IMG/VR virus record: IMGVR_UViG_3300045988_114464
Span: 1-64,000 of that record
Length of the DNA: 64,000 nucleotides
Source: a virus
Reading direction: 5' to 3' (one strand)
Shown in pieces: positions 1-40,150 of the stretch (position 1 is its first letter; each line of letters starts with the position of its first letter). Both the position numbers and the translations under genes were made by a program. Below the pieces are notes generated by a model. That model was not told the DNA's origin. It saw only the letters and a program-made list of their open reading frames with translations, and ran no database searches.

Positions 1-135
1 ATCCATACTTAAAGAAACAAATTTCGGGACGTGAGAGAAAGTAATTTTTATTTCTTCGTTGCGGACTTCTGCTTCTTTGTATTCCGCAGTTAAGCCTTGC
101 GCTTGTAAAGGTTCTCCCATAATCTTTCCGTTCAT
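1..135 (-). CDS. type-B small paralog, N-terminal fragment (continues beyond window start)
   Basis: ATG at 135. MNGKIMGEPLQAQGLTAEYKEAEVRNEEIKITFSHVPKFVSLS aligns with the N-terminus of 9346..9669 (MNAKVMKEFVEQKNGLTAEY...SFSQAPSFVSLT). Confidence 0.6.
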   Translation of the reverse strand, partial: MNGKIMGEPLQAQGLTAEYKEAEVRNEEIKITFSHVPKFVSLSMD

Positions 136-232
136 CTACTCTGCCCCCCCCAAGTCTCATTGAGGTTTGCATATTATACATATTGCTCAAATCCTTTCTG
201 AGAGCAATGAGAAGGAGGTGAAGGATAAAAAG
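136..232 (-). promoter_or_regulatory. G-tract leader element A
   Basis: Gene sense reads TTGCTCTCA-gaaaggat-TTGAGCAA hairpin, then ATGTATAATATGCAAACCTCAATGAGACTT-G8-CAGAGTAG-ATG. The plus-strand C8 is at 144-151, and the G run ends 8 nt before the start at 135. Confidence 0.7.
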
Positions 233-562
233 TCAAGACAAAGTGCCTAATTCAAGATACTTAAAATAGGGCGAAATTGAATTATTATAATAGTTTGCAA
301 CCTTGAAATGTCCCTCTCCGAAATAAAAATTTACCGAAGGACTATTTTCGTCAAAGCTCCCAAACGGGAACTCCACTACTTCCTTAAAAACACTCACTTT
401 ACCAATCATTACGCTGTTGTCGGTCATCATCAGCTTAAAATATAAACTTGCATCTGTTGTTGCAATTTTTACAACTGAGCTACCTTCTGCTACATCTTGA
501 TGAATAGCACTCTTAAAATGAATTGTTCCTTCTACACCCTTACCAGTTACAATCCCATCCAT
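233..562 (-). CDS. type-A small paralog (MDGIVTGK...YLELGTLS)
   Basis: 109-aa ORF. It shares the family N-terminus M-N/D-G/A-I-V and the C-terminal LE.GTL motif with 8964..9323 and 30648..31043. Confidence 0.7.
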   Translation of the reverse strand: MDGIVTGKGVEGTIHFKSAIHQDVAEGSSVVKIATTDASLYFKLMMTDNSVMIGKVSVFKEVVEFPFGSFDENSPSVNFYFGEGHFKVANYYNNSISPYFKYLELGTLS

Positions 563-720
563 CAGCCGACACTTCCCTTCATGCCAGCCATCTCATTGCT
601 CATATTAAATTTTAGGAGAATGCTAACGCATTGCCCCCCCCAGTCGAAACTGAGGTTGACTGAATGTTAAACATAATGTTCTCCTTTTTGTGTAGTTATA
701 TTTGAGCAATGAGTAGAGGG
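563..720 (-). promoter_or_regulatory. G-tract leader element B with mini-ORF 612..674
   Basis: AAAAAGGAG-6nt-ATG mini-ORF encoding MFNIQSTSVSTGGGNALAFS. C8 at 634-641. Bracketed by the 11-bp inverted repeat CTCATTGCTCA (592-602) / TGAGCAATGAG (703-713). Confidence 0.8.
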
Positions 721-1065
721 TTATTCTAATAATCCAAAATCCACCGAGGAAATATACAAAGACAGATTATTATTGTTAAAACCCAGACCAACATTTTCTA
801 TTCCTTCATTATTAGTATAACTTATGCTAAACGAAGGAGACCAGTCGCCTGAACTATTTCTAAAAGTAAAATAATTAGTACCTCTTAAAGTTTCATACTT
901 AAAAATGCTAATTTGTCCATATAAATCAACGATTTTAACATATGGTGCAATCCTGTCTATAAGAAAGTTAATATGGAACGTATTTAACGCATCGTCTTTA
1001 TATGATTTTTTACTCATGAATGTCAAAGCATTAGCAGTAAATGGCTTATTAACAATCCCATTCAT
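721..1065 (-). CDS. type-A small paralog (MNGIVNKP...SSVDFGLLE)
   Basis: 114-aa ORF with the family N-terminus. KIVDLYG resembles HLKIVDIDG and FLKIVDKL in other members. Confidence 0.7.
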   Translation of the reverse strand: MNGIVNKPFTANALTFMSKKSYKDDALNTFHINFLIDRIAPYVKIVDLYGQISIFKYETLRGTNYFTFRNSSGDWSPSFSISYTNNEGIENVGLGFNNNNLSLYISSVDFGLLE

Positions 1066-1217
1066 ACAGTCACCTGCTTTCGGTGACTCACATTGCTCAA
1101 ATATTCAGTTGTTAGGGAGTTATTGCCCCCCCAAGTGAAGCATAAGTTCACTCAGAGAAAACTTGATACGCATGGTATCACTCCTTGTTGTTTAATTGAG
1201 CAACGTGTGTGATGTAA
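1066..1217 (-). promoter_or_regulatory. G-tract leader element C with mini-ORF 1120..1173
   Basis: CAAGGAG-7nt-ATG mini-ORF encoding MRIKFSLSELMLHLGGQ. C7 at 1126-1132. Inverted repeat TTGCTCAA 1093-1100 / TTGAGCAA 1196-1203. GTCACC-gaaagca-GGTGAC hairpin just before the main ATG. Confidence 0.8.
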
Positions 1218-1583
1218 TTAGGATTTTAGATAGATGGCACAGCCACCTTGATTATAACCGTCACTTCTGGTAACTCTTATAGTGTCTGAATCGGTATCAA
1301 TAGTAATTTCTGTAATAGAAATGCTATCAATATTATGAGATTCTTCAAAAGACAAACGAGTAAAAGTTTTTGAAATTTTATTTACTTCAAAAATTGCTAA
1401 ACCCCAATAATAATAATCATAATTATTAGAATACCCGCTCATTACAATCATTTTAGAAATATCGGGGCTATATTGTTGATAAGCTGGGGTTTCATCATTG
1501 TGCTTAAATGCTATTATATTAGCAATATTATCAGCCGATAAATCAATTCCGACTTCAGCCAGCTTATTCACAATCCCATTCAT
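1218..1583 (-). CDS. type-A small paralog (MNGIVNKL...)
   Basis: ATG at 1583 preceded by AAGGGGG; the track used a GTG one codon upstream. Family N-terminus. Confidence 0.7.
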   Translation of the reverse strand: MNGIVNKLAEVGIDLSADNIANIIAFKHNDETPAYQQYSPDISKMIVMSGYSNNYDYYYWGLAIFEVNKISKTFTRLSFEESHNIDSISITEITIDTDSDTIRVTRSDGYNQGGCAIYLKS

Positions 1584-1752
1584 CACATGACCCCCTTACT
1601 TGCGTATAGGAGGTTGCCAATCCTGTTGCTCAAAGGAAAGGCGTTAATGACCATTAGAAGGTCAGAAGAACGCCCCCCCAAGTTAAAGCGAAGGTTCATA
1701 AATTTGTTCTCCTTTGTTTAATTTTGAGCAACATTAGATGGGTTAGATTGAT
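1584..1752 (-). promoter_or_regulatory. G-tract leader element D with mini-ORF 1583..1699 (currently stop/start-coupled)
   Basis: CAAAGGAG-9nt-ATG 38-codon mini-ORF (MNLRFNLGGRSS...ASKGVM). Its TGA (1583-1585) overlaps the main ATG as TGATG. C7 at 1673-1679. Inverted repeat TTGCTCAAA 1626-1634 / TTTGAGCAA 1723-1731. Confidence 0.8.
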
Positions 1753-2142
1753 TTATCCAAACACATAATAATGAACATTTTTTATTTGAGGGCTTTGATT
1801 ATTCAAATGAAAAGTTATTTTATTGTTTGAATAATCATAGTTCAAATTTTCTATGTCTATAGAAGAATATCGCACATAAGTTGGGTTGTCACCATCATAT
1901 TCATAAAGTCTATATGAAAACCCCGAAGTTGAGTTGAGTGGAATGAATTGAACAAATTGCGCTCTAATTAGCATAGATGACGGATTTGGAATAACCACTA
2001 CTGCCATCACTTGTGCGTCTGTTGGTAATGATTGAAAATCAAAAATAGGAAGTGATACTTCATGAATGTTACTTGAATAACTACCTTCAAATGAAAAACA
2101 TTTGTTTTGATTTACAAGTACAGGATTCACGACACCGTTCAT
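1753..2142 (-). CDS. type-A small paralog (MNGVVNPV...)
   Basis: ATG at 2142 preceded by AAGGGGGTGG. Lies 19 nt downstream of the type-B ORF 2162..2329, the same B-then-A pairing seen at 9346/8964. Confidence 0.65.
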   Translation of the reverse strand: MNGVVNPVLVNQNKCFSFEGSYSSNIHEVSLPIFDFQSLPTDAQVMAVVVIPNPSSMLIRAQFVQFIPLNSTSGFSYRLYEYDGDNPTYVRYSSIDIENLNYDYSNNKITFHLNNQSPQIKNVHYYVFG

Positions 2143-2161
2143 CAAGCCACCCCCTTAGGAG

Positions 2162-2329
2162 TTAACCGAAAGCTGTTAAAATATATCGAGTGCTTGATTG
2201 AACACCGTATACATATGCACGAATATAGTTGTCTGTGTAAGTGTAGTAGATGTCTGAAACATTTCCTATTATCGAACCCATGAGTCCTTTCTGAACTTGT
2301 GCAGGTTCTTGAATAATCTTTCCATCCAT
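2162..2329 (-). CDS. type-B small paralog, short form (55 aa), not in ORF track
   Basis: MDGKIIQEPAQVQKGLMGS... resembles MNGKIMGEPLQAQGL (1..135) and MNAKVMKEFVEQKNGL (9346..9669). SD is GGGAGGTGG. The track instead lists an overlapping 2142..2372 ORF in another frame. Confidence 0.55.
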   Translation of the reverse strand: MDGKIIQEPAQVQKGLMGSIIGNVSDIYYTYTDNYIRAYVYGVQSSTRYILTAFG

Positions 2330-2443
2330 TAGTACGCCACCTCCCGATGTTGCTCAACCGAGAGGTAAGCATCGGTGGGCTTACTTGGCGTATGCCCCCC
2401 CCCAGTTGCGGGGAGTTTTAGTCTTAATCATATGTATTTCTCC
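2330..2443 (-). promoter_or_regulatory. G-tract leader element E with mini-ORF 2381..2431
   Basis: TAAGGAG-8nt-ATG mini-ORF encoding MIKTKTPRNWGGAYAK. C9 at 2395-2403. Only the downstream TTGAGCAA half of the repeat is present (plus-strand TTGCTCAA, about 2350-2357). Confidence 0.75.
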
Positions 2444-2872
2444 TTACATATTGTCTACAATTTCATGCATCTTATCTTCTAAATGAATTGCAACGAACGA
2501 TAGTAACGCCCACGCAAAGCAAAAGAATAGATTGCACTGTCCAAAAAAGAAGGTAAATGGTAAATGGCTGTAGTCCCACACACCCATGTGTAAGATATTG
2601 TTCAGCACTACACCAGTCAATCCTTCAAGAACCGTGATAACCACAGTTCCAATTACTACTTGTTGCCATTGCTTGAATTGGCGCTTTCCTTCGTTTAGCA
2701 GTCCTACAATGACGAAACATAAGCCGCCGAGAACTGCCATAGTCCAGTTGGTTGGTTTACCCTTCCAGATGGTTTCGATGGCGAAGTAAAGCATACCTCC
2801 CATCACACCAAACAGCGCATGAACAAGTATTGAATTTAGTTTATGCTTCATGCTCATAATAATATTCCCCAA
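2444..2872 (-). CDS. integral membrane protein
   Basis: Four hydrophobic segments: ALFGVMGGMLYFAI, MAVLGGLCFVIVGLL, VVIGTVVITVLEGLTGVVL, FFCFAWALLSFVAI. Confidence 0.6.
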   Translation of the reverse strand: MGNIIMSMKHKLNSILVHALFGVMGGMLYFAIETIWKGKPTNWTMAVLGGLCFVIVGLLNEGKRQFKQWQQVVIGTVVITVLEGLTGVVLNNILHMGVWDYSHLPFTFFFGQCNLFFCFAWALLSFVAIHLEDKMHEIVDNM

Positions 2873-3551
2873 ATAATTCTTTCGCTTTATTTTGATAAGC
2901 TATTGACGCTTCTTCAGGAGTGTCAAAACTTCCTAAATGATAAGTAATTTTATTATGAGTAATTATCGCAATATATCGAGAACCTTTCTTTTGCACCCCT
3001 GTAAAACCCGAAGTATTATCACTTCGTTTCTTGCGATTCCAGTCATTTTGTTGTAACGAACAAATTCTTAAATTAGCTTTACGATTATCAGAAGGGTTAT
3101 GGTTTATATGGTCTACAAATTCTTTACTGTTTGATGGCTTCATTATCATTCTATGTAACTGTTTGAATTGTGCATTCGAGTCACCTGTAATAACATAACC
3201 TTTATTATTCATTACCCAACAAAAATCTTTTATTAAATCATAATCTTCCAAATCAAAATAAAAGGGAATATTTTGTTGATTTGTATAACCGATTCCAAAA
3301 TCACCTGATAAATCGTATTTATTATAAAGTTTGTTCTTACTTCTTGCCAATTCTTTTCTAAGACAACCGCACGATTGTTTTGTACCATCTCTTAGATAAG
3401 CACCGTCAACAATAATGCCTTTTTTACCGCAAGAACAATCACATTCCCAACGTGAGCGTGATTGACCAGAAGGCAAATAACGGTTCGATACTCTTCTTAT
3501 GACTTTTAACCGATTAAAAGTCATACCTGTCAAATCTTTAACTTTACCCAT
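2841..3551 (-). CDS. HNH homing endonuclease with AP2-like DNA-binding domain
   Basis: HINHNPSDNRKANLRICSLQQN (HNH) and GFTGVQKKGSRYIAIITHNKITYHLGSFDTPEEASIAYQNKAKELFGEY (AP2-like). Cys cluster WECDCSCG...CGC. Paralog of 5829..6584. Confidence 0.75.
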   Translation of the reverse strand: MGKVKDLTGMTFNRLKVIRRVSNRYLPSGQSRSRWECDCSCGKKGIIVDGAYLRDGTKQSCGCLRKELARSKNKLYNKYDLSGDFGIGYTNQQNIPFYFDLEDYDLIKDFCWVMNNKGYVITGDSNAQFKQLHRMIMKPSNSKEFVDHINHNPSDNRKANLRICSLQQNDWNRKKRSDNTSGFTGVQKKGSRYIAIITHNKITYHLGSFDTPEEASIAYQNKAKELFGEYYYEHEA

Positions 3552-4233
3552 TTAGTTTAGTTAAAACAGCTTCAATTTGCGCTGAAGCAGAAGATAGAAT
3601 AGATTCATATTGTTCTTGATAATTTGAAGGCAGTTGTGTATTCAAAATAATTGAACGAATTGTTTCTTTATCTTTGCTTTCGTTGACCCACTTTTTTAGC
3701 AAATTACATTTAGTTGTTAGAGCAGTAATTTTTTGCTCCATTGCTACATAAAGCGATACAATATCAGCCTTTGGATAAATCGCACATTCCTTGCCGTCAG
3801 CGTGATAAGGATATTCCTCAACGCCCATAACAACTGCATTGAAGATGTTGCCAATATTGGCTTGGTCGTTTGCTGTTAGGCTGAAATGTTCATCGCCGTA
3901 AGAAGTCTTAACGTCAACGCCAGCATAAATAGTCTGCTCAGTAGCATCATTGAGTGACTTAATAGCTTCTGCACGAACTTCTTCGATAGTCGGTTCGTAT
4001 GGTGTTGGCTCAACTTCTTCGTCTACATTGATATGAACAGCGTTACCTGTACACTTCCATACCTTGTAATCAGCCTTTTCATATGCTACCAGTAGCTTGC
4101 CATCATCAGAAGTGAACATTAGTTCGTTACCAAGTTCAATATCGTGATTGCCGTTAAGATACATGGTACATACCTTATCGTTCAGCATACCAGTTACATT
4201 GTTATATGTCTTGCCATTAGTTAGTAGTTTCAT
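3544..4233 (-). CDS. hypothetical protein (tail-fibre-associated by position only)
   Basis: 229-aa ORF whose start overlaps the stop of 4233..4631. No motif recognised. Confidence 0.5.
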   Translation of the reverse strand: MKLLTNGKTYNNVTGMLNDKVCTMYLNGNHDIELGNELMFTSDDGKLLVAYEKADYKVWKCTGNAVHINVDEEVEPTPYEPTIEEVRAEAIKSLNDATEQTIYAGVDVKTSYGDEHFSLTANDQANIGNIFNAVVMGVEEYPYHADGKECAIYPKADIVSLYVAMEQKITALTTKCNLLKKWVNESKDKETIRSIILNTQLPSNYQEQYESILSSASAQIEAVLTKLNG

Positions 4234-4631
4234 TACTGCACCTCACCTACAACTTGAACAACAAACCCTGATTGTGGAGCAGAATTACCGCTTGTAGTAA
4301 GAGTTAGTGTGTTATTGCCTGTCTGACCATAATCTGCAAGCAGAGCGAACGCGGCTTTTTCATTTGCCGCTGTTGCTGAGTCAGAAGATGGTAGAAGATA
4401 AATGATTGGCTGATAGCGCATTGTTTCAGCAAGACCTTGAATAGTCTGCGTCTGCTTGTAAACACTGCCTTGCTGTGTCCAGCCAGCTTTCGTAAAGGTT
4501 GCAGTACCGAACACTGTTTTACCAACTTCAAGGTTGGTTCGTGCTCCCAGCGCCGTAGTAGCGCCAGTACCGCCATCGGGGATTGAAACTGGGGTGGAAA
4601 TGCCCTGTCCCAGTATACCGCCAAAACCCAT
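4233..4631 (-). CDS. short tail-fibre-like protein
   Basis: The N-terminal SIPDGGTGATTALGARTNLEV resembles the GGTGA.T...AR.NLG motif common at N-termini of phage tail-fibre proteins. Has its own consensus promoter. Confidence 0.45.
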   Translation of the reverse strand: MGFGGILGQGISTPVSIPDGGTGATTALGARTNLEVGKTVFGTATFTKAGWTQQGSVYKQTQTIQGLAETMRYQPIIYLLPSSDSATAANEKAAFALLADYGQTGNNTLTLTTSGNSAPQSGFVVQVVGEVQ

Positions 4632-4687: not shown

Positions 4688-4716
4688 ATTATACCACATC
4701 CTTATACACTTGTCAA
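4688..4716 (-). promoter_or_regulatory. sigma-70-type promoter
   Basis: Minus sense: TTGACA (4711-4716), 17 nt, TATAAT (4688-4693), upstream of 4233..4631. Confidence 0.7.
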
Positions 4717-4738: not shown

Positions 4739-5878
4739 TTAATTATTCAGAATATCAATCGTCCGCGCTTCATACAGCTTTTGCCATGTCTGAAAATCGT
4801 GGTCTACTGCATTTTCCTTGCGCTCAAGCAGACCCAAGCTGTCCCACACAACATCAACTTGTGCAAGACCAGACCATAGTTCAGCTTGCTTCATAATTTT
4901 GTTGTTCCATTGCTCAAACTCTGCATCTGTACCGCCAGTAGCATCATTATCTACAATAAGGACAACATGATTAACGCCCAACTTTAGCAGTTGATTCCTA
5001 CGCTGTAAGCCAAGCTGTGAGCCAAACATAGCGACTGCCGTTGATTGTGAGCCAAGAAAACTATGCAATTTAAGCACAGCTTTCTCACTTTCGGCAATCA
5101 TTACAGTACCAGTACGCTCTATTTCATATTGGTTCTGTGCCAATCCATATAGAACCGCGTTAGTAGGGAACTTATAGATAGTGCCATCCAACAGTTGCAA
5201 AGGTCGATATTTACCATTTATTGCATTTTCACCCCAATACCTACAGCGAATCCCTACTAAATCATAGTTTTCATTAAACACAGGAATGGTCGTTCCCCAT
5301 TCTCGCCCATACCAACCGATACGAAACAAGGCTTGTGTTTCTTCACTTATACCCTCATCCACCCATGCTTGACACGGTGTATTGGGTATAGCGTCAAGAA
5401 TAGATGCGTCATAAGTTGGCAATAAACTACCGCCGTTTCGCACTGTAATGAACTTCTCAAGTCCAGACCAATCCGTGATATTGGGGTTGGCTACACGCTG
5501 AACTTGAGAAGATTCAATACCAGTAACGTCAAGAATGTAATTTACTGCGTCTACGAAAGAACAAGGTTGCTTTAGTAGAGATAATCGTGTTTGAACAAGA
5601 GAAATAATATCATAACTTCTTGATGCAGTATAACCACAATAAACATCAGTGTCTTTATAATAAACCAATTTTCCCGCTGACCCTTTATACGGGTCTACGT
5701 TTTTATCTCCTGTCCACCATTGAATTTCTGTTTTGTTTTCATAATACATTGGAATACCAAGAGATTTAAGAATTTTCTTATGGTTTTCACATGATAAAGA
5801 AGATTTTAATAATTTGGTATTTATCTTTTTATATCCCATATTCTTCAAACATAAAACTTTGTCCAGCAAAATCGCCAA
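4739..5878 (-). CDS. DNA primase (Toprim domain)
   Basis: MIAESEKAVLKL (Toprim Glu) and VVLIVDNDATGG (DxD). The start is uncertain; an alternative ATG at 5839 gives MGYKKINTK. Confidence 0.6.
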   Translation of the reverse strand: MAILLDKVLCLKNMGYKKINTKLLKSSLSCENHKKILKSLGIPMYYENKTEIQWWTGDKNVDPYKGSAGKLVYYKDTDVYCGYTASRSYDIISLVQTRLSLLKQPCSFVDAVNYILDVTGIESSQVQRVANPNITDWSGLEKFITVRNGGSLLPTYDASILDAIPNTPCQAWVDEGISEETQALFRIGWYGREWGTTIPVFNENYDLVGIRCRYWGENAINGKYRPLQLLDGTIYKFPTNAVLYGLAQNQYEIERTGTVMIAESEKAVLKLHSFLGSQSTAVAMFGSQLGLQRRNQLLKLGVNHVVLIVDNDATGGTDAEFEQWNNKIMKQAELWSGLAQVDVVWDSLGLLERKENAVDHDFQTWQKLYEARTIDILNN

Positions 5879-6584
5879 ACAATTCTTTTTCTTTTTTCAA
5901 TCTGGCAATTATAGCTTCTTCTTTTGTCTCATAATAACCCAAATTATAATATACTTTATCATATTCAATAAACGCGCCCCATTTATTGCAATTTTTATGA
6001 AAAAACACACCTATTATTCCCGATTTTCCTTGGGGTACTTTTCGATTCCAAGAATTTTCTTTAGGCAAGCATTTTCTTAAATTTTCTTTTTTGTTATTTT
6101 TTATGTTACCGTCTATGTGGTCAACAACAACTGATTCATTTGTAAGAGGAAAACTTTGTTTTTCAACTCCCATTACAAAACGATGAAAAGCTACTCTTTC
6201 ACCTTTGGTCAAAGAAAATAAATACCCATGACCATCTTCAGTCCAACAATAATCTTTAATTTTATTATAATCTTCATAATCAAAATAAAAAATATTGTTG
6301 CTATTGCTTGCGTATAAAAAACAATTATTTTTATCGGACAAATTATAAATATTATTTTTACGATGGTTTAATATTGTGCTTTCTTTCTGCAAGCATCCGC
6401 ATGATTGTGTAATTCCTTTTAATAAATTTCCAGAACTAATTTTTTTTATGGTGCGCTTTTCACAATCACATTGGCAAAGCCACATAGTCTTTTGTTGTCC
6501 TTTAGGGCTGACATAATTTTCCGCTCGTTCAAGAACTGTTAAACGTCCAAATTGTCGCCCAGTTAAATCCTTAAAATTACCCAT
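5829..6584 (-). CDS. HNH homing endonuclease with AP2-like domain (paralog of 2841..3551)
   Basis: VDHIDGNIKNNKKENLRKCLPKENS (HNH) and GIIGVFFHKNCNKWGAFIEYDKVYYNLGYYETKEEAIIARLKKEKELFG (AP2-like). N-terminus MGNFKDLTGRQFGRLTV parallels MGKVKDLTGMTFNRLKV. Confidence 0.75.
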   Translation of the reverse strand: MGNFKDLTGRQFGRLTVLERAENYVSPKGQQKTMWLCQCDCEKRTIKKISSGNLLKGITQSCGCLQKESTILNHRKNNIYNLSDKNNCFLYASNSNNIFYFDYEDYNKIKDYCWTEDGHGYLFSLTKGERVAFHRFVMGVEKQSFPLTNESVVVDHIDGNIKNNKKENLRKCLPKENSWNRKVPQGKSGIIGVFFHKNCNKWGAFIEYDKVYYNLGYYETKEEAIIARLKKEKELFGDFAGQSFMFEEYGI

Positions 6585-6603: not shown

Positions 6604-7020
6604 TTACTCGATTTCTGCTTCGTAATATCCTGAGGCTACATAGAAGTGAATCCCATCGTCCGCGTTAATTGCAAACAGAATAGAATTGCCACAAGCGACA
6701 GACTTTAGTGATTCATCTGGGTGAGCAAGGAAATAATCAATGGCTTCACGAATCCAATCGTTAATCTCTTGGTCACTCTGCTGAACACCGCCATTAAAAT
6801 CATAAAAATCTTCTGGAAAACGCGGTGGGTTGTTCAGCGAGAATGTTTCTGCACAAAAACCATTACATTCAGGACAAATCACATATGCGTTGTTGTGAAT
6901 ATCGCGCTGTACATCATCACTATCGTACTCAAATTCACAACCACAAATAGGACAAGTTACACGCTTTGTTACAATTTCGCGTGCGGTACTCTTAGTATCA
7001 CCGTGCTTAATTACCTTCAT
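6604..7020 (-). CDS. zinc-ribbon protein
   Basis: CPICGC...CPECNG pairs. Start chosen at the ATG 6 nt after AGGAGG (MKVIKHGD). Confidence 0.55.
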   Translation of the reverse strand: MKVIKHGDTKSTAREIVTKRVTCPICGCEFEYDSDDVQRDIHNNAYVICPECNGFCAETFSLNNPPRFPEDFYDFNGGVQQSDQEINDWIREAIDYFLAHPDESLKSVACGNSILFAINADDGIHFYVASGYYEAEIE

Positions 7021-8134
7021 TTTCATCCTCCTGTTCTTCTTGCGAAATGCCATAGGTTACAATAAATTCCTTTACTGCCTTGGCAAATTCATCAATCTCG
7101 GCTTGTGTAGTAGGGGTAACACCACCATCAAAACTTAGTCGAATACATTCGCTTGCTTCTTTTTCAGAATAACCAGCGTGCATTAGTACGCGATAACGCT
7201 CCTTACCATCTTCACATGAACTGTGTCCTACGCCAATATAAATCCTCTTACTTGCGAGAAAAACCTGCAATGCGTCAGCGTATACACCGTTGATACGAAG
7301 GCACACAATATCAGTGATGTAATCTTCTGCGCCAGATAGAGCCATTGTACTGTACTTAACGCCTTGCTCAAATAGTGCATTTCTAACAGCGTTATCCCAT
7401 TCTTCTGTACAGCGATGATTATAATGCACTACACTACGCATAAGTGCATAAGCTGTACTTGTTGCACCAGCAACGTCAGGAGTACCGATATAATCAATAC
7501 CATTCAGCCATTCATTAAATCGGTCACTTACCCAAATAAAGCCTTGACCCTTTTCGCCATGAAATTTGTGAGCACTTGCGATAACGCAATCACAGAAATC
7601 TTCAAGATGCTCTGGAATGTCATACTTGCCAATGCTTGCGGTCATATCACAAACAAAAAAGCCGTTAAGTTCTCGCGTCACAGTGCCAATATCAGCAACA
7701 GGAAAAACTTCACCAGTGATATTAGAGACAAGCTGACAAAATGTGATAGGTGTCCTATTAAGACAACAATCTTTTACCACTTTTTTATCGCACAGTTCTT
7801 CAATATTATAAGCAAACACTGGATTGCTGGCAATACATTCGTGCTCATAGGGTGAACTCATCATACGATAATTCTTGTCTGGAACATCGTCATCGTCAAA
7901 GGCTTCAACCCAAGCGTCAGCAATCCTATCAAATAGATACTTAAACATCTTGCTTGCCGTACCGCCAAACACAACCTTGCCAGAACTTACACCAAGGGAA
8001 TGCTTTACGCTATTTTCTGCGTTAAATAGCGCTTCACGGCTCTCAGCACCATAAGGCGTGTTAGCGTTCAACCAAGAACAACTATAAGACGGGTACTTAG
8101 GGAAAGTGGTAGCCGCACTATCAAGATAAATCAT
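7007..8134 (-). CDS. class V aminotransferase / cysteine desulfurase-like PLP enzyme
   Basis: N-terminal IYLDSAATT and SAHKFHGEKG (SxHK PLP-lysine motif); about 375 aa. Confidence 0.6.
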   Translation of the reverse strand: MIYLDSAATTFPKYPSYSCSWLNANTPYGAESREALFNAENSVKHSLGVSSGKVVFGGTASKMFKYLFDRIADAWVEAFDDDDVPDKNYRMMSSPYEHECIASNPVFAYNIEELCDKKVVKDCCLNRTPITFCQLVSNITGEVFPVADIGTVTRELNGFFVCDMTASIGKYDIPEHLEDFCDCVIASAHKFHGEKGQGFIWVSDRFNEWLNGIDYIGTPDVAGATSTAYALMRSVVHYNHRCTEEWDNAVRNALFEQGVKYSTMALSGAEDYITDIVCLRINGVYADALQVFLASKRIYIGVGHSSCEDGKERYRVLMHAGYSEKEASECIRLSFDGGVTPTTQAEIDEFAKAVKEFIVTYGISQEEQEDENEGN

Positions 8135-8963: not shown

Positions 8964-9323
8964 TTATTGTAAAGTTCCAACTTCAAGCGCACTTACATAA
9001 TTATATAGCGTATAGTCAGCACCGTCATAAATAAATGAAACGTAATCGCTACCTGATGTTGCGATATAACCGTTACCTTGTGGACTTCCATCACTATTAT
9101 AACAATATACTAAAGTGCCTGTTCTTGAATAACTTCCCAATACGCTAATTTTAAGAAATGTAATATTTCCATCAATGTCTACAATTTTAAGATGACATTT
9201 TGAAACTTCTTCAGAAGTTAAACTTTTGTCAGAATAATCTTGTGATAAACTCATTGAATATAACTTTTTCCAAGTCATACTTCCAATGGGTGCTTCTTGC
9301 TTACCAGAAATAATTGCGTTCAT
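8964..9323 (-). CDS. type-A small paralog (MNAIISGKQEAPIGS...ALEVGTLQ)
   Basis: Clear similarity to 30648..31043 (MDAIVSGKVEKPEGS, FLKIVD, SLEIGTL). Confidence 0.7.
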   Translation of the reverse strand: MNAIISGKQEAPIGSMTWKKLYSMSLSQDYSDKSLTSEEVSKCHLKIVDIDGNITFLKISVLGSYSRTGTLVYCYNSDGSPQGNGYIATSGSDYVSFIYDGADYTLYNYVSALEVGTLQ

Positions 9324-9345
9324 GCAATCACCCCTTTTCTGGTGT

Positions 9346-9669
9346 TTAGAAGAAGCCTACTGCGAAAACCTTGCTTGCATTGACTGAAGATAATTTTATA
9401 TTTTTCCCAGAAAATTTTACATAAAATGAACTGGTTTGTGAACTTTCCAAAGCGTAATACACATAGCAATTGTCTGGAAACCATGCTATATTCGCGCTGT
9501 ATGCTGTATTTGAAGTGTACTTTTGAGGACTCCAAAGTGTTAGGCTTACAAAACTCGGCGCTTGGGAAAAAGAAAGCGTGACTTCTTGTTGATAGACTGC
9601 TTTTTCGAGATACTCTGCCGTCAGCCCGTTTTTCTGCTCTACAAATTCCTTCATTACTTTTGCATTCAT
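9346..9669 (-). CDS. type-B small paralog (full length)
   Basis: MNAKVMKEFVEQKNGLTAEY...; homologous to the fragment 1..135. Followed 22 nt later by its type-A partner. Confidence 0.65.
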   Translation of the reverse strand: MNAKVMKEFVEQKNGLTAEYLEKAVYQQEVTLSFSQAPSFVSLTLWSPQKYTSNTAYSANIAWFPDNCYVYYALESSQTSSFYVKFSGKNIKLSSVNASKVFAVGFF

Positions 9670-9809
9670 TTAATCTGCCCCCCCCAACTCGCGCCAAGGT
9701 TGACAGATTACAGCTTACATCACCGTGTAAGCCCCCCCCAAGTGAAGCGGAGGTTTGGTAAATTGAACATATAAATGTCCTCCTTTAATTTATATTATGA
9801 GGAAATTCC
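9670..9809 (-). promoter_or_regulatory. double G-tract leader element F (F2 with mini-ORF 9720..9770, then F1)
   Basis: AAAGGAGG-8nt-ATG mini-ORF encoding MFNLPNLRFTWGGLTR. C8 at 9732-9739 (F2) and C8 at 9678-9685 (F1). F1 reads GTTGGGGGGGGCAGATTAA-ATG, like element A. Confidence 0.75.
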
Positions 9810-16199: not shown

Positions 16200-16274
16200 T
16201 GGCACAAGACTTAGGACTTTAACCTAAACGAACAGTTTTGGAGACTGTCATGCTAACAATTACATCAGTCTTGC
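16200..16274 (-). tRNA. tRNA-Trp (CCA)
   Basis: Hand-folded cloverleaf: acceptor GCAAGAC/GTCTTGT, anticodon stem ACAGT/ACTGT, loop CTCCAAA, T arm TTAGG-TTAAAGT-CCTAA, encoded CCA. Confidence 0.75.
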
Positions 16275-16277
16275 GTA

Positions 16278-16352
16278 TGGAGCGCTATGGCGTAATCGAA
16301 ACGCCATCTTCAGTTTGGAAAACTGAGGTTCTTACCATTAAACTAATAGCGC
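16278..16352 (-). tRNA. tRNA-Gly (UCC)
   Basis: Acceptor GCGCTAT/ATAGCGC, anticodon stem TCAGT/ACTGA, loop TTTCCAA, T arm GGCGT-TTCGATT-ACGCC, encoded CCA. Confidence 0.8.
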
Positions 16353-16468
16353 AAATCGCCCCGCGACCAAAAGGTACGTCATGCGCGCTTGACTTGTTTT
16401 CCACTGGGAATCGCAGTACAGTCATGGGCTAAACCGCAATAAGCGTGAACTTAACAAACGGGGAACAC

Positions 16469-16544
16469 TGGCAGGGATGGTGTGATTCGGACACACGAAT
16501 GTCGGCTTCAAAGACCGATGCCTTGACCGCTTGGCTACACCCCT
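16469..16544 (-). tRNA. tRNA-Gln (UUG)
   Basis: Acceptor AGGGGTG/CATCCCT, anticodon stem TCGGT/GCCGA, loop CTTTGAA, T arm GTGTG-TCCGAAT-CACAC, encoded CCA. Confidence 0.75.
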
Positions 16545-16701
16545 ATATTTCTCCTACGCTGACGAGACGCAGGAGAGAAATTAAATTGTATGCCGACACG
16601 TTTGAGCGTGTCTATTAAATTGTTTGTCTGCCGTACCAGACGGTGTGTGTGAGTGGAGTTTTTGCTCACGGACAATAAAATTTACCTTGTACGGAAGGCA
16701 T

Positions 16702-16777
16702 TGGTCTACCATCGCAGGCTCGAACTGCGGACTTCTTGATTAAAAGTCAAGTGCTCTACCAACTGAGCTAATGGTAG
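16702..16777 (-). tRNA. tRNA-Lys (UUU)
   Basis: Acceptor CTACCAT/ATGGTAG, D arm GCTC-AGTTGGTA-GAGC, anticodon stem CTTGA/TCAAG, loop CTTTTAA, T arm CGCAG-TTCGAGC-CTGCG, encoded CCA. Confidence 0.85.
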
Positions 16778-17575: not shown

Positions 17576-17774
17576 AACAGTTGTTTCCTTTAGTTTGAAA
17601 TAATGGAGCGAATGACGGGTACTGCCCCCGCGTCCTCAGTTTGGGAAACTGAAATTCTACTATTGAACTACATCCGCATATGATAACAGGGAATGAGTTA
17701 GAAAGAAGGTATGTCAAAAGAAGGAGAAAAAATCTCATTCCCTGCTATTTATTTATATTTGTTATGCTTAGAAG

Positions 17775-30647: not shown

Positions 30648-31043
30648 TTAAGTTGTTTCAAGTGTTCCTATTTCTAATGAACTAATACAGTTATTTATAT
30701 CACTTAAAGTATTATTTAGCTTAAATGCTAAGTGCCATCCATTATATGAGTAATAACAACTAATTGCTGTTCCATATCCAGCGTCCCCATATCCAGAAGC
30801 ATTGCCATCATGCAAGTAAAAAGCAGGGATGGTAACTGTATTAGAATAAGAAGGTAAGTGGTTTATCGCAATTAAAATTATAGATTGTAGTTTATCTACA
30901 ATTTTCAAAAAATGTGTATCATAATCATGTTCTGAAATTAGTATTTCATCATATGTGGAAACAAATTTATAATTATTGTTTACCTTAAACACGCCCAAAC
31001 TTCCTTCTGGCTTTTCAACCTTACCACTCACAATAGCATCCAT
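30648..31043 (-). CDS. type-A small paralog (MDAIVSGKVEKPEGS...SLEIGTLETT)
   Basis: ATG at 31043; the track used a TTG two codons upstream. Closest relative is 8964..9323. Confidence 0.7.
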   Translation of the reverse strand: MDAIVSGKVEKPEGSLGVFKVNNNYKFVSTYDEILISEHDYDTHFLKIVDKLQSIILIAINHLPSYSNTVTIPAFYLHDGNASGYGDAGYGTAISCYYSYNGWHLAFKLNNTLSDINNCISSLEIGTLETT

Positions 31044-31147
31044 CAGCAATCACCACCTTTCGGCAGTTGATTACTTAACCAATGCCCCCCCCAAGTGGCG
31101 AGGTAGTTTGATAATGCTAAATGTTCTCATAGGGAACACTCCTTTTC
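31044..31147 (-). promoter_or_regulatory. G-tract leader element G with mini-ORF 31071..31130
   Basis: AAAAGGAG-8nt-ATG mini-ORF encoding MRTFSIIKLPRHLGGALVK. C8 at 31085-31092. Confidence 0.8.
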
Positions 31148-32770: not shown

Positions 32771-34096
32771 CTATACTCGTTTAGGATGTTCTTTGTATTT
32801 GGGGTATAAATCATAATTATAAGCCGTGTCATATTGCCAAGTAAATCCACCGCAGTGTTTATATTTACCTGTACAGCATTTTTGGATATTTTGTGCCAGT
32901 ATGCCTGTTTCAAACGAAGCTGAAGAAGCGTCAAGATAGTGAGTATTTGTTTCGACACAATATACTGGTGTACTACCTTTTATTGGTTTGTTTATAATAG
33001 CTTGAATTTCTTCAAGTTCTAATTGAGAGTATTCGTCATAAAACATCCATTTTAAGTATTGTCCTTCGGCAAATCCAGCATATTCGCTTTTGTGTTCGGC
33101 ACAATTTCTAATAGAATCGCTGAATTTGATATTAGCGTAATCTCTTGCTTCTACCTGTGTTTTATAAATTTTTCCTGTGTTTAAGCATACAATAGGTGGG
33201 TTGACATTAGTCCATCGTTGGACAATAATTTCTGTGATAGTTTCATTTGTAAGTTCTTCATAGTCGTTAATATAAATAAAAATTTGCCCGTAAGTAGTTT
33301 TTTTATCGCCACGGCAACTGCCAGCAACAAGACTATAGGGAATATCGTAATATTCGCTGGCTTTTGAAGGATTGTCAAAAATTTTACCATCAATCAAATT
33401 CATGACAGGGTTAAATTTAAGGCTTTGTAGATAATTCGCGTGTTGCTTTTTTCTATCTTCAAAAAGTTGTTGATAATCTTCAAGAGACTTAGATTTATCA
33501 TATTTTTCCCAAAACAAAGGAGCGCCTTCAATATTTTTGCCCGCAGTCCATTGTCGGCTATTTGTTTCAAATATATGAGATATATTTCGTTCATGGCAAC
33601 CTGTGCATCCTTGTTTGGTCTTTTCTTCTCCTGCAATGGTTAAAGACGGAAAAATCTCTAAGGTGTTTAAGCAAATAACAGGAATGTTTACAGATAGATT
33701 TGCTCTATCGTGATGTTTTCCATAAAAACTATTGTTCTTCCCCTTTCTTGTTTCAGAAAAAAGTTGTTTGGTTTCTTCGCTATGATGCCTACCAAACATA
33801 GGCGCACTACCGCCGATTGAAAGATTATATCCAATCTTAGGGTCACGAGCATGATATTTGTCAATTAGTTCAATTTCTTTTTGAAAGGCTTCTTCTTGAG
33901 TTAGGCCTTCAATCAAAATTTCTTTTATGAAATTATTTTCGCCATATTTTTGAATAGCATGATGCAAACGAGGGTTGCCTTTATATCCATACCCACTTTG
34001 CCATCTTTCTTTTAGAGTTCGTGAAGTGATGCCTATATATATTAAACCGTTGTGTTTATCGGTATATTTGTATACCTTCCAAGTGTTGTTGCACAT
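32771..34096 (-). CDS. GIY-YIG homing endonuclease with NUMOD-like repeats
   Basis: VYKYTDKHNGLIYIGITSRTLKERWQSGYGY...N (GIY-YIG core), then repeated PMFGRHHSEETK / GKNNSFYGKHH modules. Confidence 0.75.
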   Translation of the reverse strand: MCNNTWKVYKYTDKHNGLIYIGITSRTLKERWQSGYGYKGNPRLHHAIQKYGENNFIKEILIEGLTQEEAFQKEIELIDKYHARDPKIGYNLSIGGSAPMFGRHHSEETKQLFSETRKGKNNSFYGKHHDRANLSVNIPVICLNTLEIFPSLTIAGEEKTKQGCTGCHERNISHIFETNSRQWTAGKNIEGAPLFWEKYDKSKSLEDYQQLFEDRKKQHANYLQSLKFNPVMNLIDGKIFDNPSKASEYYDIPYSLVAGSCRGDKKTTYGQIFIYINDYEELTNETITEIIVQRWTNVNPPIVCLNTGKIYKTQVEARDYANIKFSDSIRNCAEHKSEYAGFAEGQYLKWMFYDEYSQLELEEIQAIINKPIKGSTPVYCVETNTHYLDASSASFETGILAQNIQKCCTGKYKHCGGFTWQYDTAYNYDLYPKYKEHPKRV

Positions 34097-34870: not shown

Positions 34871-35050
34871 ATGGCTTGGACAGAAATGAGTTATAACAGA
34901 AATTTTTTTGATGACACACTTGACGAAGATACAATTTGTCATAAGAAGTCATTAAGTGAATCATATACTTTGCGCTTACAGAAACGACAAGAGATGGAAA
35001 GTAAGCGTCAAGAGCGACTAAAGAAGAAGTACAAGGGTGAGCAACAATGA
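34871..35050 (+). CDS. hypothetical small protein
   Basis: GAGGTGAG SD followed by MAWTEMSYNRNFF.... The stop overlaps the next start. Confidence 0.5.
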   Translation: MAWTEMSYNRNFFDDTLDEDTICHKKSLSESYTLRLQKRQEMESKRQERLKKKYKGEQQ

Positions 35051-39238: not shown

Positions 39239-40150
39239 ATGGCAACTACACCTCCAAAACAGTTACGCAGAACAGACCGATGTTGTCCTATTTGCGGAAC
39301 TGTTAAGTTAGCGAACTATTTCAATGAAAGTCCTGCCCCATATCACGATAAGTATATTCCTATTTGTCGTAACTGTTGCAATATACTGTTAAAGAGATAT
39401 ATTGCTGAAACGAAAAGTGAAGCCGCGGGCTTGTGGTTACTGTTAGCCCAAGTAAATATTCCATTTATCAATGAAATTTATGAGAAAGCTATTCTTAGGC
39501 TTCAAGACGCTTCTACAAAGAAGCCAAGTTTATTTGTGACATATCTTAGCTTTATGGCACAATGGAATGAACCGTATACTGGTTTTTTGCAGTCTACCAA
39601 TATGCTGACTGATTTTCTAAAGACGGTTGAAGTAGAAGCGGAAAAAATTCGCACCGAACAAAAACCGCTGAAGAATATGAAGGAAGAAATTGAGAAGTGG
39701 GGTAAATTTACAGGAGTTGACGGCAAAATTGACAGAGATTCTTATGATTTTTTGAATAGAACCTTTGATGAGTATACCGCCGATATTCTTGAAATGGACA
39801 CTAACTTAATGAATCGTTACCGCGATTTGTGCAAATGCGAATTGCGTTTGCGTAAAGCTAATGAATCGGGTGACGGTGCTGAGATTAGTAAAGCACAAGA
39901 TGCTTTGAACAAACAATTGGCTCTATTAAAGCTAAATGATTTCCAATCTAAGAACATTAGCGATGAGCAGAAGGCTTTTGAAAAGAAAGTCGCTATGATT
40001 GAATATAGCAAACCTGCTGAGTGTGAAGATTTACAGAAATATCTTGACATGGTAGGTTACGAGAAAGAAAAAGCAATGCTAAAGCGTTCTCTTAGAAATG
40101 CTGTAACTGGTTCTCGTGAATATCCTGATGTAACATTGCAGGAGGGATAA
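39239..40150 (+). CDS. terminase small subunit candidate
   Basis: Lies immediately upstream of the large terminase. Has an N-terminal zinc finger CCPICG...CRNCC. Assigned by position only. Confidence 0.35.
   Translation: MATTPPKQLRRTDRCCPICGTVKLANYFNESPAPYHDKYIPICRNCCNILLKRYIAETKSEAAGLWLLLAQVNIPFINEIYEKAILRLQDASTKKPSLFVTYLSFMAQWNEPYTGFLQSTNMLTDFLKTVEVEAEKIRTEQKPLKNMKEEIEKWGKFTGVDGKIDRDSYDFLNRTFDEYTADILEMDTNLMNRYRDLCKCELRLRKANESGDGAEISKAQDALNKQLALLKLNDFQSKNISDEQKAFEKKVAMIEYSKPAECEDLQKYLDMVGYEKEKAMLKRSLRNAVTGSREYPDVTLQEG

Follow-up and report, generated by a model that had tools for sequence, protein, structure and literature searches.

How can a phage keep a tandem array of small, co-oriented and highly diverged genes, and what decides which of them are translated? 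This question is raised by a locus in a 64,000-nt stretch of phage DNA (hereafter, the window), formed by positions 1 to 64,000 of the IMG/VR virus record IMGVR_UViG_3300045988_114464. At this locus, short open reading frames (ORFs) with a common N-terminus, referred to as type A and type B, follow one another, each preceded by a putative short upstream ORF (uORF) that runs through a tract of guanines (polyG or G-run). Based on the sequence analysis reported here, we suggest that the locus is probably an array of exchangeable cassettes, in which a polyG contingency switch acting on translational coupling would govern translation cassette by cassette. Two features, both absent from the initial annotation of the window, are the most informative: the junctions that combine uORF, polyG and hairpin, and a stop-free frame that overlaps the type-B genes.

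Junctions, leader frames and run lengths

The N-terminus M[ND][GAS][IKV][IVM] is common to nine minus-strand ORFs, of which eight are complete and one is truncated at the window edge. Among the 209 ORFs of at least 40 amino acids (aa), this start is found in eight, against about 0.15 expected from composition; all eight are family members, and the motif occurs nowhere else on either strand. In the following, genes are named by their first coordinate.

1-135, minus strand: type B, N-terminal 45 codons (MNGKIMGEPLQAQGLTAEY...), cut by the window edge; 49% identical to B9346, with full-length orthologs of 106 aa
233-562, minus strand: type A, 109 aa, MDGIVTGK...YLELGTLS
721-1065, minus strand: type A, 114 aa, MNGIVNKPF...VDFGLLE
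1218-1583, minus strand: type-A-like, 121 aa, MNGIVNKLAEV...AIYLKS, without the LExGTL end
1753-2142, minus strand: type-A-like, 129 aa, MNGVVNPV...HYYVFG, 19 nt downstream of a type-B gene
2162-2329, minus strand: type B, short 55-aa form
8964-9323, minus strand: type A, 119 aa, MNAIISGKQ...ALEVGTLQ
9346-9669, minus strand: type B, 107 aa, MNAKVMKEFVEQKNGLTAEY...FAVGFF; an 8-strand beta sandwich in the AlphaFold2 model
30648-31043, minus strand: isolated type A, 131 aa, MDAIVSGKVEKPEGS...LEIGTLETT

A run of seven to nine G (G7-G9) precedes every unit of family genes. The window holds eight TGGGGGGG sites, against 0.33 expected in 64 kb, all of them on the minus strand and each upstream of a family gene. 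The run is part of a conserved junction of about 100-170 nt that precedes each cassette and forms one unit with it. In several units, the junction opens with an inverted repeat, TTGCTCAA...TTGAGCAA. Next come a strong Shine-Dalgarno sequence (SD; AAGGAG) and, 6-10 nt on, the ATG of the uORF; 7-14 codons into the uORF, the motif AACCTC..(T)CACTT is followed by the G-run, and then by a spacer and a hairpin that ends 2-5 nt ahead of the AUG of the paralog. The G-run forms the 3' arm of a first predicted hairpin; the second, pre-start hairpin, likewise predicted, usually contains the SD of the paralog itself. Directly before type B, the G-run sits 8 nt upstream of the AUG and doubles as SD; some units have two runs in series. 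The conserved element is not a peptide because the nucleotide motif is kept while its reading frame differs between units and the run length varies, and a conserved leader peptide was ruled out on these grounds. The inverted repeat (8-10 nt) brackets the leader ORF and the G-run hairpin in the minus-strand junctions 563-720, 1066-1217 and 1584-1752. We considered TTGCTCAA/TTGAGCAA as ends of a miniature inverted-repeat transposable element or as attC-like ends and rejected both; the annotated stretches contain no recombinase, and the repeat folds as an RNA stem around the uORF.

The key to the junction is the frame in which the uORF leaves the G-run. In the units of the window and of seven related loci, we extended each uORF with the observed run length and with one or two additional G. 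One length class (modulo 3) per unit, and no more, brings the end of the uORF onto the start codon of the paralog, forming AUGA, or else UGAUG or UAAUG, with the first base of the stop 2 nt ahead of the A of AUG. In the remaining two length classes, the stop lies 30-87 nt upstream of the start. This coupling frame is present in 54 of the 57 distinct units, against 20.6 +/- 3.5 (maximum, 32) in 500 trials with shuffled spacers that kept the start context, and in 91 of 99 units when 25 loci of the clade are considered. As assembled, the units of these 25 loci comprise 73 with an early stop, 19 coupled to the first gene and six coupled to the second gene. Two 37-codon leaders of the coupling kind in one related contig (L001) had already been annotated by gene callers. 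Below, a unit in the coupling frame is called predicted ON and a unit with an early stop predicted OFF.

136-232, minus strand: junction before the cut type-B gene; uORF ATG 181-179, G8 144-151 (8 nt ahead of the B start). Predicted outcomes: read-through with G8, AUGA on the B start with G9, UAG-AUG with G7
563-720, minus strand: junction before 233-562; SD AAGGAG, uORF ATG 674-672, G8 634-641 as 3' arm of a CCUCAGU-UUCG-ACUGGGG hairpin. An inverted repeat of 8-10 nt (CATTGCTCA...TGAGCAATG) encloses SD, uORF ATG, G8 and pre-start hairpin. G8 stops 52 nt before the start (predicted OFF); G9 would give UGAUG (ON)
1066-1217, minus strand: junction before 721-1065; uORF ATG 1173-1171, G7 1126-1132, SD within the hairpin GUCACC-GAAAGCA-GGUGAC. 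G7 gives an early stop (predicted OFF); G9 would give AUGA (ON, as in the related contigs L001 and L009)
1583-1752, minus strand: junction before 1218-1583; uORF 1699-1583, 38 codons, through G7 1673-1679, with UGAUG on the start; the only unit of the window in the coupling frame (predicted ON)
2330-2443, minus strand: junction before 2162-2329; uORF ATG 2431-2429, G9 2395-2403. G9 gives an early stop, G8/G11 give UAAUG on the B start, and G7/G10 lead through B to the A start
9670-9809, minus strand: junction before 9346-9669; uORF ATG 9770-9768, G8 twice, at 9732-9739 and 9678-9685, with the hairpin GCUUACA...UGUAAGC in between. The present state is an early uORF stop
31044-31147, minus strand: junction before the isolated 30648-31043; uORF ATG 31130-31128, G8 31085-31092, GAAA-loop hairpin over the SD. 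G8 stops at -30; G7/G10 would give UGAUG

In at least the unit with the G-run at 634-641, the SD of the leader is itself predicted to pair with a downstream UUCUCC, which hints that translation of the leader may in turn need ribosomes coming from the preceding gene.

Before type-B genes, one more frame crosses the whole of B without a stop, over 96-152 codons, and terminates at the start codon of the gene that comes next, again with UGAUG or AUGA. We refer to it as the conduit frame; in the window it is found twice.

2142-2372, minus strand: stop-free (+2) frame across B2162, which the uORF would enter with G7 or G10, ending in UGAUG on the start of 1753-2142
9320-9697, minus strand: stop-free frame across B9346, its stop forming AUGA with the start of 8964-9323

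The orthologs of junction 136-232 (L001 11469 and L007 1066) have the same arrangement, with a pass-through of 126-134 codons onto the start of the next gene. Among 31 distinct type-B coding sequences (CDS), 27 have no stop in the +2 frame, whereas the +1 frame has 3-18 stops (7-18 in full-length genes). In shuffles of synonymous codons, which drew codon usage from the same type-B genes and are, therefore, conservative, the probability of a stop-free frame was at most 0.002 for 14 of 16 diverged stop-free representatives; it was 0.014 and 0.058 for the other two, the latter being the 55-aa B2162 of the window. A B-like gene that has no coupled gene downstream (L001 19736) provides an internal control and has 11 stops in the +2 frame. 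The dN/dS of type-B orthologs is raised (medians 0.77-0.96, compared to 0.03-0.47 for type A), as expected if a second frame constrains synonymous sites. B2162 is an internal deletion of a 99-103-aa form (MDGKIIQE...) that retains both termini and the stop-free overlapping frame, and its main role may by now be that of a conduit to gene 1753-2142. Conduit frames, or frame-shifted fusions ending in ...NEVIA, are annotated as genes or proteins in L001:2514-2972, L007:1039-1443, L019:4432-5328, P0058 and P0069, and the gene tables of L001 and L007 lack the true type-B gene. Annotation of these loci is unreliable because conduit frames have been called as genes while type-B genes have been missed.

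The predicted RNA structures follow the same layout. Pairing of the G-run with a CCUC-type segment upstream of it is predicted for every one of the 54 distinct contexts. For the commonest hairpin class, GUC-AA-N7-N4-N3GGGG-GG-GGC (13 distinct sequences), 130 of 130 cells hold standard pairs, with compensatory changes at two pairs (11 cells); the covariation score is 0.433 compared to 0.28 in shuffles, none of the 500 shuffles scored as high, and in slid controls the paired fraction drops to 38-69%. A pre-start hairpin is predicted in each of 44 distinct regions (median z -2.6; 75% below -2). Loops of these hairpins are often of the GAAA type and their stems are highly diverse, with an SD-like purine run mostly in the 3' arm. 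At the gathering threshold, Rfam recognized only tRNAs.

All eight runs of the window attain the length at which a homopolymer can slip (about 7 nt or more), and the G-runs vary in length. In 28 related loci, runs of at least six G are almost exclusively on the coding strand; lengths range from 6 to 11 across relatives, and orthologous sites differ between independent assemblies, as illustrated by four units.

721 unit: G7 in 1, G8 in 10, G9 in 4
2162 unit: G6 in 1, G8 in 3, G9 in 10
1218 unit: G7 in 4, G8 in 9, G9 in 1
30648 unit: G8 in 3, G11 in 1

Run lengths being polymorphic, the predicted ON/OFF states therefore vary by genome. Usually, one to four units per genome are in the coupling frame, while the others have an early stop.

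Exchangeable cassettes and their genomic setting

The features that had first drawn attention to the array were largely borne out. Not only is the N-terminal motif common to co-oriented small ORFs, as claimed, but the order B-then-A also occurs twice (2162/1753 and 9346/8964), with intergenic gaps of 19-22 nt, and the C-terminal motif L-E/D-x-G-T/L-L, said to be shared by most type-A members, is present in four of six (LELGTLS, VDFGLLE, LEVGTLQ and LEIGTLETT), being absent from 1218 (..YLKS) and 1753 (..YYVFG). Conserved termini around a variable core recur in every relative recovered, and the distant type-A relatives read MNAIVAGKQEKQAGSLVFK...SxExGTLE. The variation at codons 2-5 is synonymous and conservative (GGG/GGT/GGA/GCA/AGT; GTG/GTA/GTT/ATT); selection thus maintains the N-terminal motif at the protein level and not only as part of the junction. 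That these are real genes is supported by the dN/dS of type-A orthologs. Sequence support for the proposed paralogy is uneven within type A: 30648 and 8964 are clear relatives (34% identity, E 1.5e-13); 233, 721, 1753 and 8964 match only weakly, in collinear order and over their whole length (E ~1e-3 with a tiny database; hhalign P between 1e-3 and 1e-4); and 1218 is tied to the family chiefly through its N-terminus. Profile comparison gave no significant similarity between type A and type B; the models of both are sandwiches of roughly eight strands with a disordered N-terminal arm.

The initial annotation had recognized no known family, and the protein families themselves are new. Pfam and PHROGs searches with all members returned nothing above noise, and a sequence search of the PDB gave no useful match (E > 0.5). 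The family is small and carries no annotation, with 28 type-A and 62 type-B clusters among 5.8 billion proteins. An exhaustive hidden Markov model scan of 1.84 billion representative proteins gave only 17 matches, of which 16 are full-length proteins of 84-127 aa with the family N-terminus and, in most cases, also the C-terminal motif. The remaining match, P0098 (1599 aa), covers only profile positions 71-121.

Between phages, the genes behave as exchangeable cassettes. When the window is aligned to the related contig L021, four junction segments of ~200 nt align with 90-98% identity (1754-1554, 1228-1050, 723-529 and 224-7), while the gene bodies do not align at all. Cassette content varies among phages in which the flanking CmpB-like gene is 92-99% identical. 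Conserved junctions next to unalignable bodies therefore indicate cassette exchange at the junctions. Units of junction and gene are also present at two further sites of the window, at 9.3-9.8 kb and 30.6-31.1 kb.

AlphaFold2 confidently predicts an 8-strand beta sandwich for type B (pLDDT 86, pTM 0.76) and, with lower confidence, a sandwich of ~8 strands for type A (pLDDT 68, pTM 0.66). In both models, the conserved N-terminal 12-13 residues are disordered. The combination of a conserved disordered arm with a variable sandwich suggests that the predicted arm docks onto a common partner. In Foldseek, no match was significant: for type A the best E values were 0.16 against PDB and 0.026 against BFVD, and for type B the best was 0.063. 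The weak neighbors of type A include the T7 fibre tip, adenovirus knobs and BFVD models named "tail fiber protein" (one with probability 0.98, E 0.037 and TM 0.48), and those of type B include tailspike C-termini, galectins, carbohydrate-binding modules and Ena fibre subunits. Conserved termini around a hypervariable core had been proposed to fit interchangeable modules for the surface or for receptor binding, or else decoys; interchangeability is supported by the cassette exchange, whereas a surface or receptor-binding role was not substantiated by these non-significant resemblances.

The leader-polyG module is not confined to this clade because unrelated phages in IMG/VR share its design. 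Scanning IMG/VR with the pattern AAGGAG-N6-10-ATG-N18-45-YTGGGGGGGGC returned 28 stretches, about one third of them from this clade; several others are unrelated phages of like design. Among these, L065 and L066/L040 carry tandem stand-alone Gp10_C tail-tip domains (PF21939, E 1.5e-15 and 3.7e-12, with matches to tail PHROGs).

L065:1-4000 and L066:1-2600, minus strand in both; also L040: Gp10_C-like paralogs, 117-156 aa, MAxWxNLLDxIYPxGSxY...WYRTA

Large ORFs, among them one with a tail-protein PHROG match (E 1e-6), precede the Gp10_C arrays. The polyG tracts of these arrays lie both inside the CDS and in leader ORFs whose stop falls at the start codon or a few nt from it. A third phage lineage, represented by L048:1590-2100 (also L045, L055 and L067), has a unit with three states, in which the leader would stop early with G8, reach the start of a 90-aa gene in AUGA with G10 and, with G9, pass through 123 codons to an AUGA on the next gene.

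The source of the window is an uncultured phage of about 105-115 kb. Closely related contigs come from human-gut metagenomes, and megablast with 12 kb of the window found no match among GenBank phages (50,697 records). The host is a human-gut bacterium and, judged from gene content and GC only, probably a Firmicute. The CmpB-like gene was uninformative as a guide to the host, having only distant relatives (32-40%) in metagenome-assembled genomes of Oscillospiraceae, Lachnospiraceae and Butyricicoccus and in one 2.6-kb contig binned as Melainabacteria. The following features surround the family genes.

2444-2857, minus strand: CmpB-like membrane-protein gene, between an HNH_3 gene and the array
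2841-3551, minus strand: HNH_3 endonuclease gene, between the DUF4376 gene and the CmpB-like gene
3544-4233, minus strand: DUF4376 / tail-fibre PHROG protein (DUF4376, 9e-6; phrog_1348, 3e-8)
4233-4631, minus strand: 132-aa tail-fibre-like protein with the GGTGATTALGARTNLEV motif; weak matches to tail-fibre PHROGs, best E 5e-4
4688-4716, minus strand: sigma-A-type promoter TTGACA-17-TATAAT with extended TG, ahead of the fibre-like gene; consensus match only
5829-6584, minus strand: second HNH_3 endonuclease gene, related to the first
7007-8134, minus strand: class-V aminotransferase / cysteine-desulfurase-like gene (PF00266, E 9e-15), unusual cargo within the replication block
16200-16777 and 17607-17677, minus strand: tRNA cluster with Trp, Gly(UCC), Gln and Lys, and a fifth by Rfam only
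32771-34096, minus strand: GIY-YIG / NUMOD3 homing-endonuclease-like gene; in the related contig L006, a different SNIPE/T5orf172 gene is at this place
35047-37671, plus strand: YonO-type single-chain RNA polymerase gene at the head of the late module (PF05183, E 2.7e-13)
39239-40150 and 40152-42017, plus strand: YonG_N-like gene (by the Pfam list of related contigs), then the large terminase subunit

The late module is SPbeta-like, with the 874-aa YonO-type polymerase and the large terminase subunit on the plus strand. The family genes share the minus strand with a DnaB-like helicase, a Toprim protein, the class-V aminotransferase and the two HNH_3 genes; downstream of the array, related contigs have a 71-aa gene, an amidase and a holin. 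Both HNH_3 genes are probably mobile insertions because the gene tables of L001 and L002 contain no counterparts. The phage tRNA-Gly(UCC) reads GGG and GGA, the codons of the polyG leaders. The array had been described as lying downstream, on the same strand, of a tail-fibre-motif gene; location and strand are as described and both L001 and L002 keep this gene and the DUF4376 gene, while PHROG support is weak for 4233-4631 itself and better for the next gene. In the junctions, we found no convincing sigma-A promoter or intrinsic terminator, and the only site ahead of the array that strongly resembles a promoter is 4688-4716. The simplest view is, therefore, that the array belongs to a polycistronic mRNA under translational control.

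A model for the switch and its alternatives

In the model that we favor, ribosomes would load at the strong SD of the leader and translate through the G-run. In the coupling frame, the ribosome would open the SD hairpin on its way to a stop at the start codon, where it would reinitiate, so that the paralog is made. In other frames, termination would occur ahead of the hairpin, which would stay shut. Pairs of B and A genes would have three classes, i.e. no coupling, coupling to B, and translation of A without B via the conduit frame; because the B stop lies only ~20 nt upstream of the A start, A is possibly also made when B is coupled. Slippage of the G-run during replication of the phage DNA would shift a unit from one class to another, heritably and reversibly, and a single burst would yield progeny expressing different subsets of cassettes, a form of bet-hedging. 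As for the proteins, we tentatively propose, from context and by analogy, that they may be alternative tail-tip or adhesin-like modules that would dock via the shared disordered N-terminal arm. This role is ranked first for the A/B/C proteins chiefly because the leader-polyG module would control small tail-tip paralogs in at least one other lineage. It is also quite possible, if a step short of probable, that gut phages of several unrelated lineages share a reusable leader-ORF/polyG module with three translational outcomes, which would let varying subsets of small tail-tip or adhesin arrays be expressed and would provide heritable bet-hedging of host range without recombinase or reverse transcriptase.

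Several points weigh against this model. Translation of the uORF, reinitiation and function of the hairpins are predictions. Under the start-codon pattern used, eight of 99 units have no coupling frame; about three quarters of the units are in the early-stop frame, which may still permit some expression; and in the unit with the G-run ending at 31092, the early stop falls at the foot of the SD hairpin. The differences in run length lie between assemblies, and homopolymer errors in sequencing or assembly are possible in individual cases. As to the products, profiles of type A and type B have no significant similarity (hhalign probability 0.3), Foldseek against PDB and BFVD returned nothing with E < 0.02 and TM scores were below 0.5. 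Moreover, the array is on the strand of the replication and lysis genes, outside the late structural operon on the opposite strand downstream of the YonO-like gene, and the neighboring endolysin is short in some relatives.

The last of these points bear on the alternative that survives best, although we regard it as unlikely, namely that the switch works as described, while its products are intracellular, acting in anti-defence or as decoys or in superinfection exclusion, or else are separately encoded cell-wall-binding subunits for the neighboring endolysin. Hypervariable small early genes are a common pattern of anti-defence functions. The array has replication and lysis genes as neighbors on the non-structural strand and, in related contigs, immediately precedes the amidase-holin pair. 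The amidase has just 258-263 aa in L002 and L007, and lectins and carbohydrate-binding modules are among the weak, non-significant type-B neighbors. However, the tail-fibre-like gene and the DUF4376 gene head the same gene block, a like switch precedes the Gp10_C tail-tip arrays in other phages, and the "tail fiber protein" models among the weak type-A neighbors in BFVD point in the same direction.

It is improbable that the frame is chosen on the RNA instead, by a +1 or -1 shift of the ribosome on GGG-GGG-GG or by slippage of RNA polymerase, so that each genome would direct a fixed share of ribosomes into each frame, with the run length tuning the ratios. In favor of such a mechanism, the G-run is inside a putative translated uORF and part of a conserved hairpin, the phage provides a tRNA-Gly(UCC) that reads GGG, and a designed leakiness would more easily explain that most assemblies carry an "OFF" length. 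Yet, the shift needed from the commonest length is not uniform, being -1 in some units and +1 or -2 in others, the usual downstream stimulatory structure is missing because the hairpin includes the run itself, and the run length does vary between assemblies. A canonical -1 frameshift site (slippery heptamer with a structure 5-9 nt downstream) was rejected as the hairpin uses the run as its 3' arm and the direction of the shift is inconsistent.

Still less probable is that the length differences are noise of sequencing or assembly, that the uORFs encode fixed leader peptides and that the array is merely one of diverged paralogs. Homopolymers of 8-9 G are error-prone, and assemblies rather than reads were examined. 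By contrast, lengths of 6 to 11 are found at many sites in independent assemblies from different pipelines, and there would be no reason for a design with three outcomes, in which pass-through frames of 96-152 codons are kept open, unless more than one frame were in use.

Finally, the G-run motif as a DNA site with incidental uORF frames, either a promoter of the YonO-like polymerase, which the phage encodes (the YonO promoter sequence is still undefined; PMC5467207) and for which AACCTC..CACTTGGGGGGGG looks loosely T7-promoter-like, or an SPBRE-type operator like the repeated 15-bp operator that precedes many SPbeta genes and is bound by the repressor MrpR (PMC10516654), is most improbable, as the motif is missing from the late-gene strand downstream of the YonO-like gene and always sits inside the leader ORF, between a strong SD-ATG and a stop, in a frame- and strand-dependent placement, and as a DNA site leaves the variable length, the compensatory changes and the stop-free type-B frame unexplained.

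Comparison with known contingency and coupling systems

If the polyG-gated coupling proposed here is correct, it would represent a new route of viral diversification, in which a homopolymer in a leader peptide, and not in the gene itself, toggles coupling and in which an overlapping conduit frame gives a gene pair three states. Contingency loci of phages would then reach beyond Campylobacter phages and T-even phages to abundant uncultured gut phages, and would be tied to arrays whose cassettes are exchanged at conserved junctions in the course of evolution. The beta-sandwich proteins of ~100-150 aa with a common N-terminal arm would be candidate host-interaction modules. There are also practical consequences. 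Gene callers err at these loci, calling the conduit frame as a gene of 125-152 aa and missing type-B genes, and homopolymer length at such sites in virome assemblies should be treated as a biological signal. PolyG phase variation, phage contingency loci and stop/start coupling are already known. Our literature searches turned up neither a leader-ORF homopolymer gating coupling nor a stop-free conduit frame with a third state as its outcome; these two elements, as predicted here, appear to be new.

The architecture of the array resembles that of the internal-protein (IP) locus of T4-type phages. There, tandem small genes with unrelated bodies share an N-terminal peptide and a conserved upstream regulatory sequence, and the bodies are swapped between related phages by recombination at conserved junctions. 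The N-terminal peptide of the T4 proteins is a capsid-targeting sequence that is removed by the prohead protease. Thus, architecture and body exchange are similar in the two systems. However, the T4 IP locus has no homopolymer switch, and packaging and cleavage are features of the T4 proteins.

The closest likeness in the switch itself is to Fletchervirus phages of Campylobacter, in which polyG tracts of 7-11 G in receptor-binding genes phase-vary (Sorensen et al. 2021, Cell Rep 35:109214, as relayed in PMC12823448 and bioRxiv 10.1101/2025.10.21.683753). There, as in the switch proposed here, changes in the length of phage-borne runs of 7-11 G switch alternative host-interaction proteins and give mixed progeny. 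By contrast, the Fletchervirus run lies inside the switched CDS, whereas here it is in a separate uORF, with predicted termination-reinitiation coupling and up to three outputs; in this clade, no G-run of at least six lies inside a family CDS, the runs being in uORFs or SD regions. Moreover, the Fletchervirus products are receptor-binding proteins (RBPs), while the proteins described here have no recognizable RBP domain and belong to a phage with a gut host. T2 and T4 have contingency loci as well, according to a recent study (Gomez, Barrick and Waters, bioRxiv 10.1101/2025.10.21.683753), and these loci have hypermutable homopolymers, reversible frameshifts and bet-hedging in common with the model. 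Their tracts, however, are scattered, of A/T or short, mostly in ORFs and inactivating, whereas here a dedicated module is repeated before each cassette.

For the coupling step, the parallel is the UGAUG-type coat-lysis junction of RNA phages, in which coupling involves an overlapping stop and start together with opening of a hairpin (PMC9955659 and PMC2268962). The UGAUG/UAAUG/AUGA overlap and a downstream SD in a hairpin that could be opened by a ribosome translating upstream are shared by both. Unlike in RNA phages, the upstream cistron here would be a dedicated short leader with its frame set by a hypermutable run, which would turn coupling into a genetic switch. Lastly, the G segment of Mu is an invertible tail-fibre system (as cited in PMC12823448), and both it and RBPs varied by diversity-generating retroelements resemble the proposed array in making alternative host-interaction modules from one genome. 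These systems use a recombinase or a reverse transcriptase, neither of which is seen near the array, whereas in the M[ND][GAS][IKV][IVM] cassettes the alternatives would be generated by run-length slippage and translational coupling.

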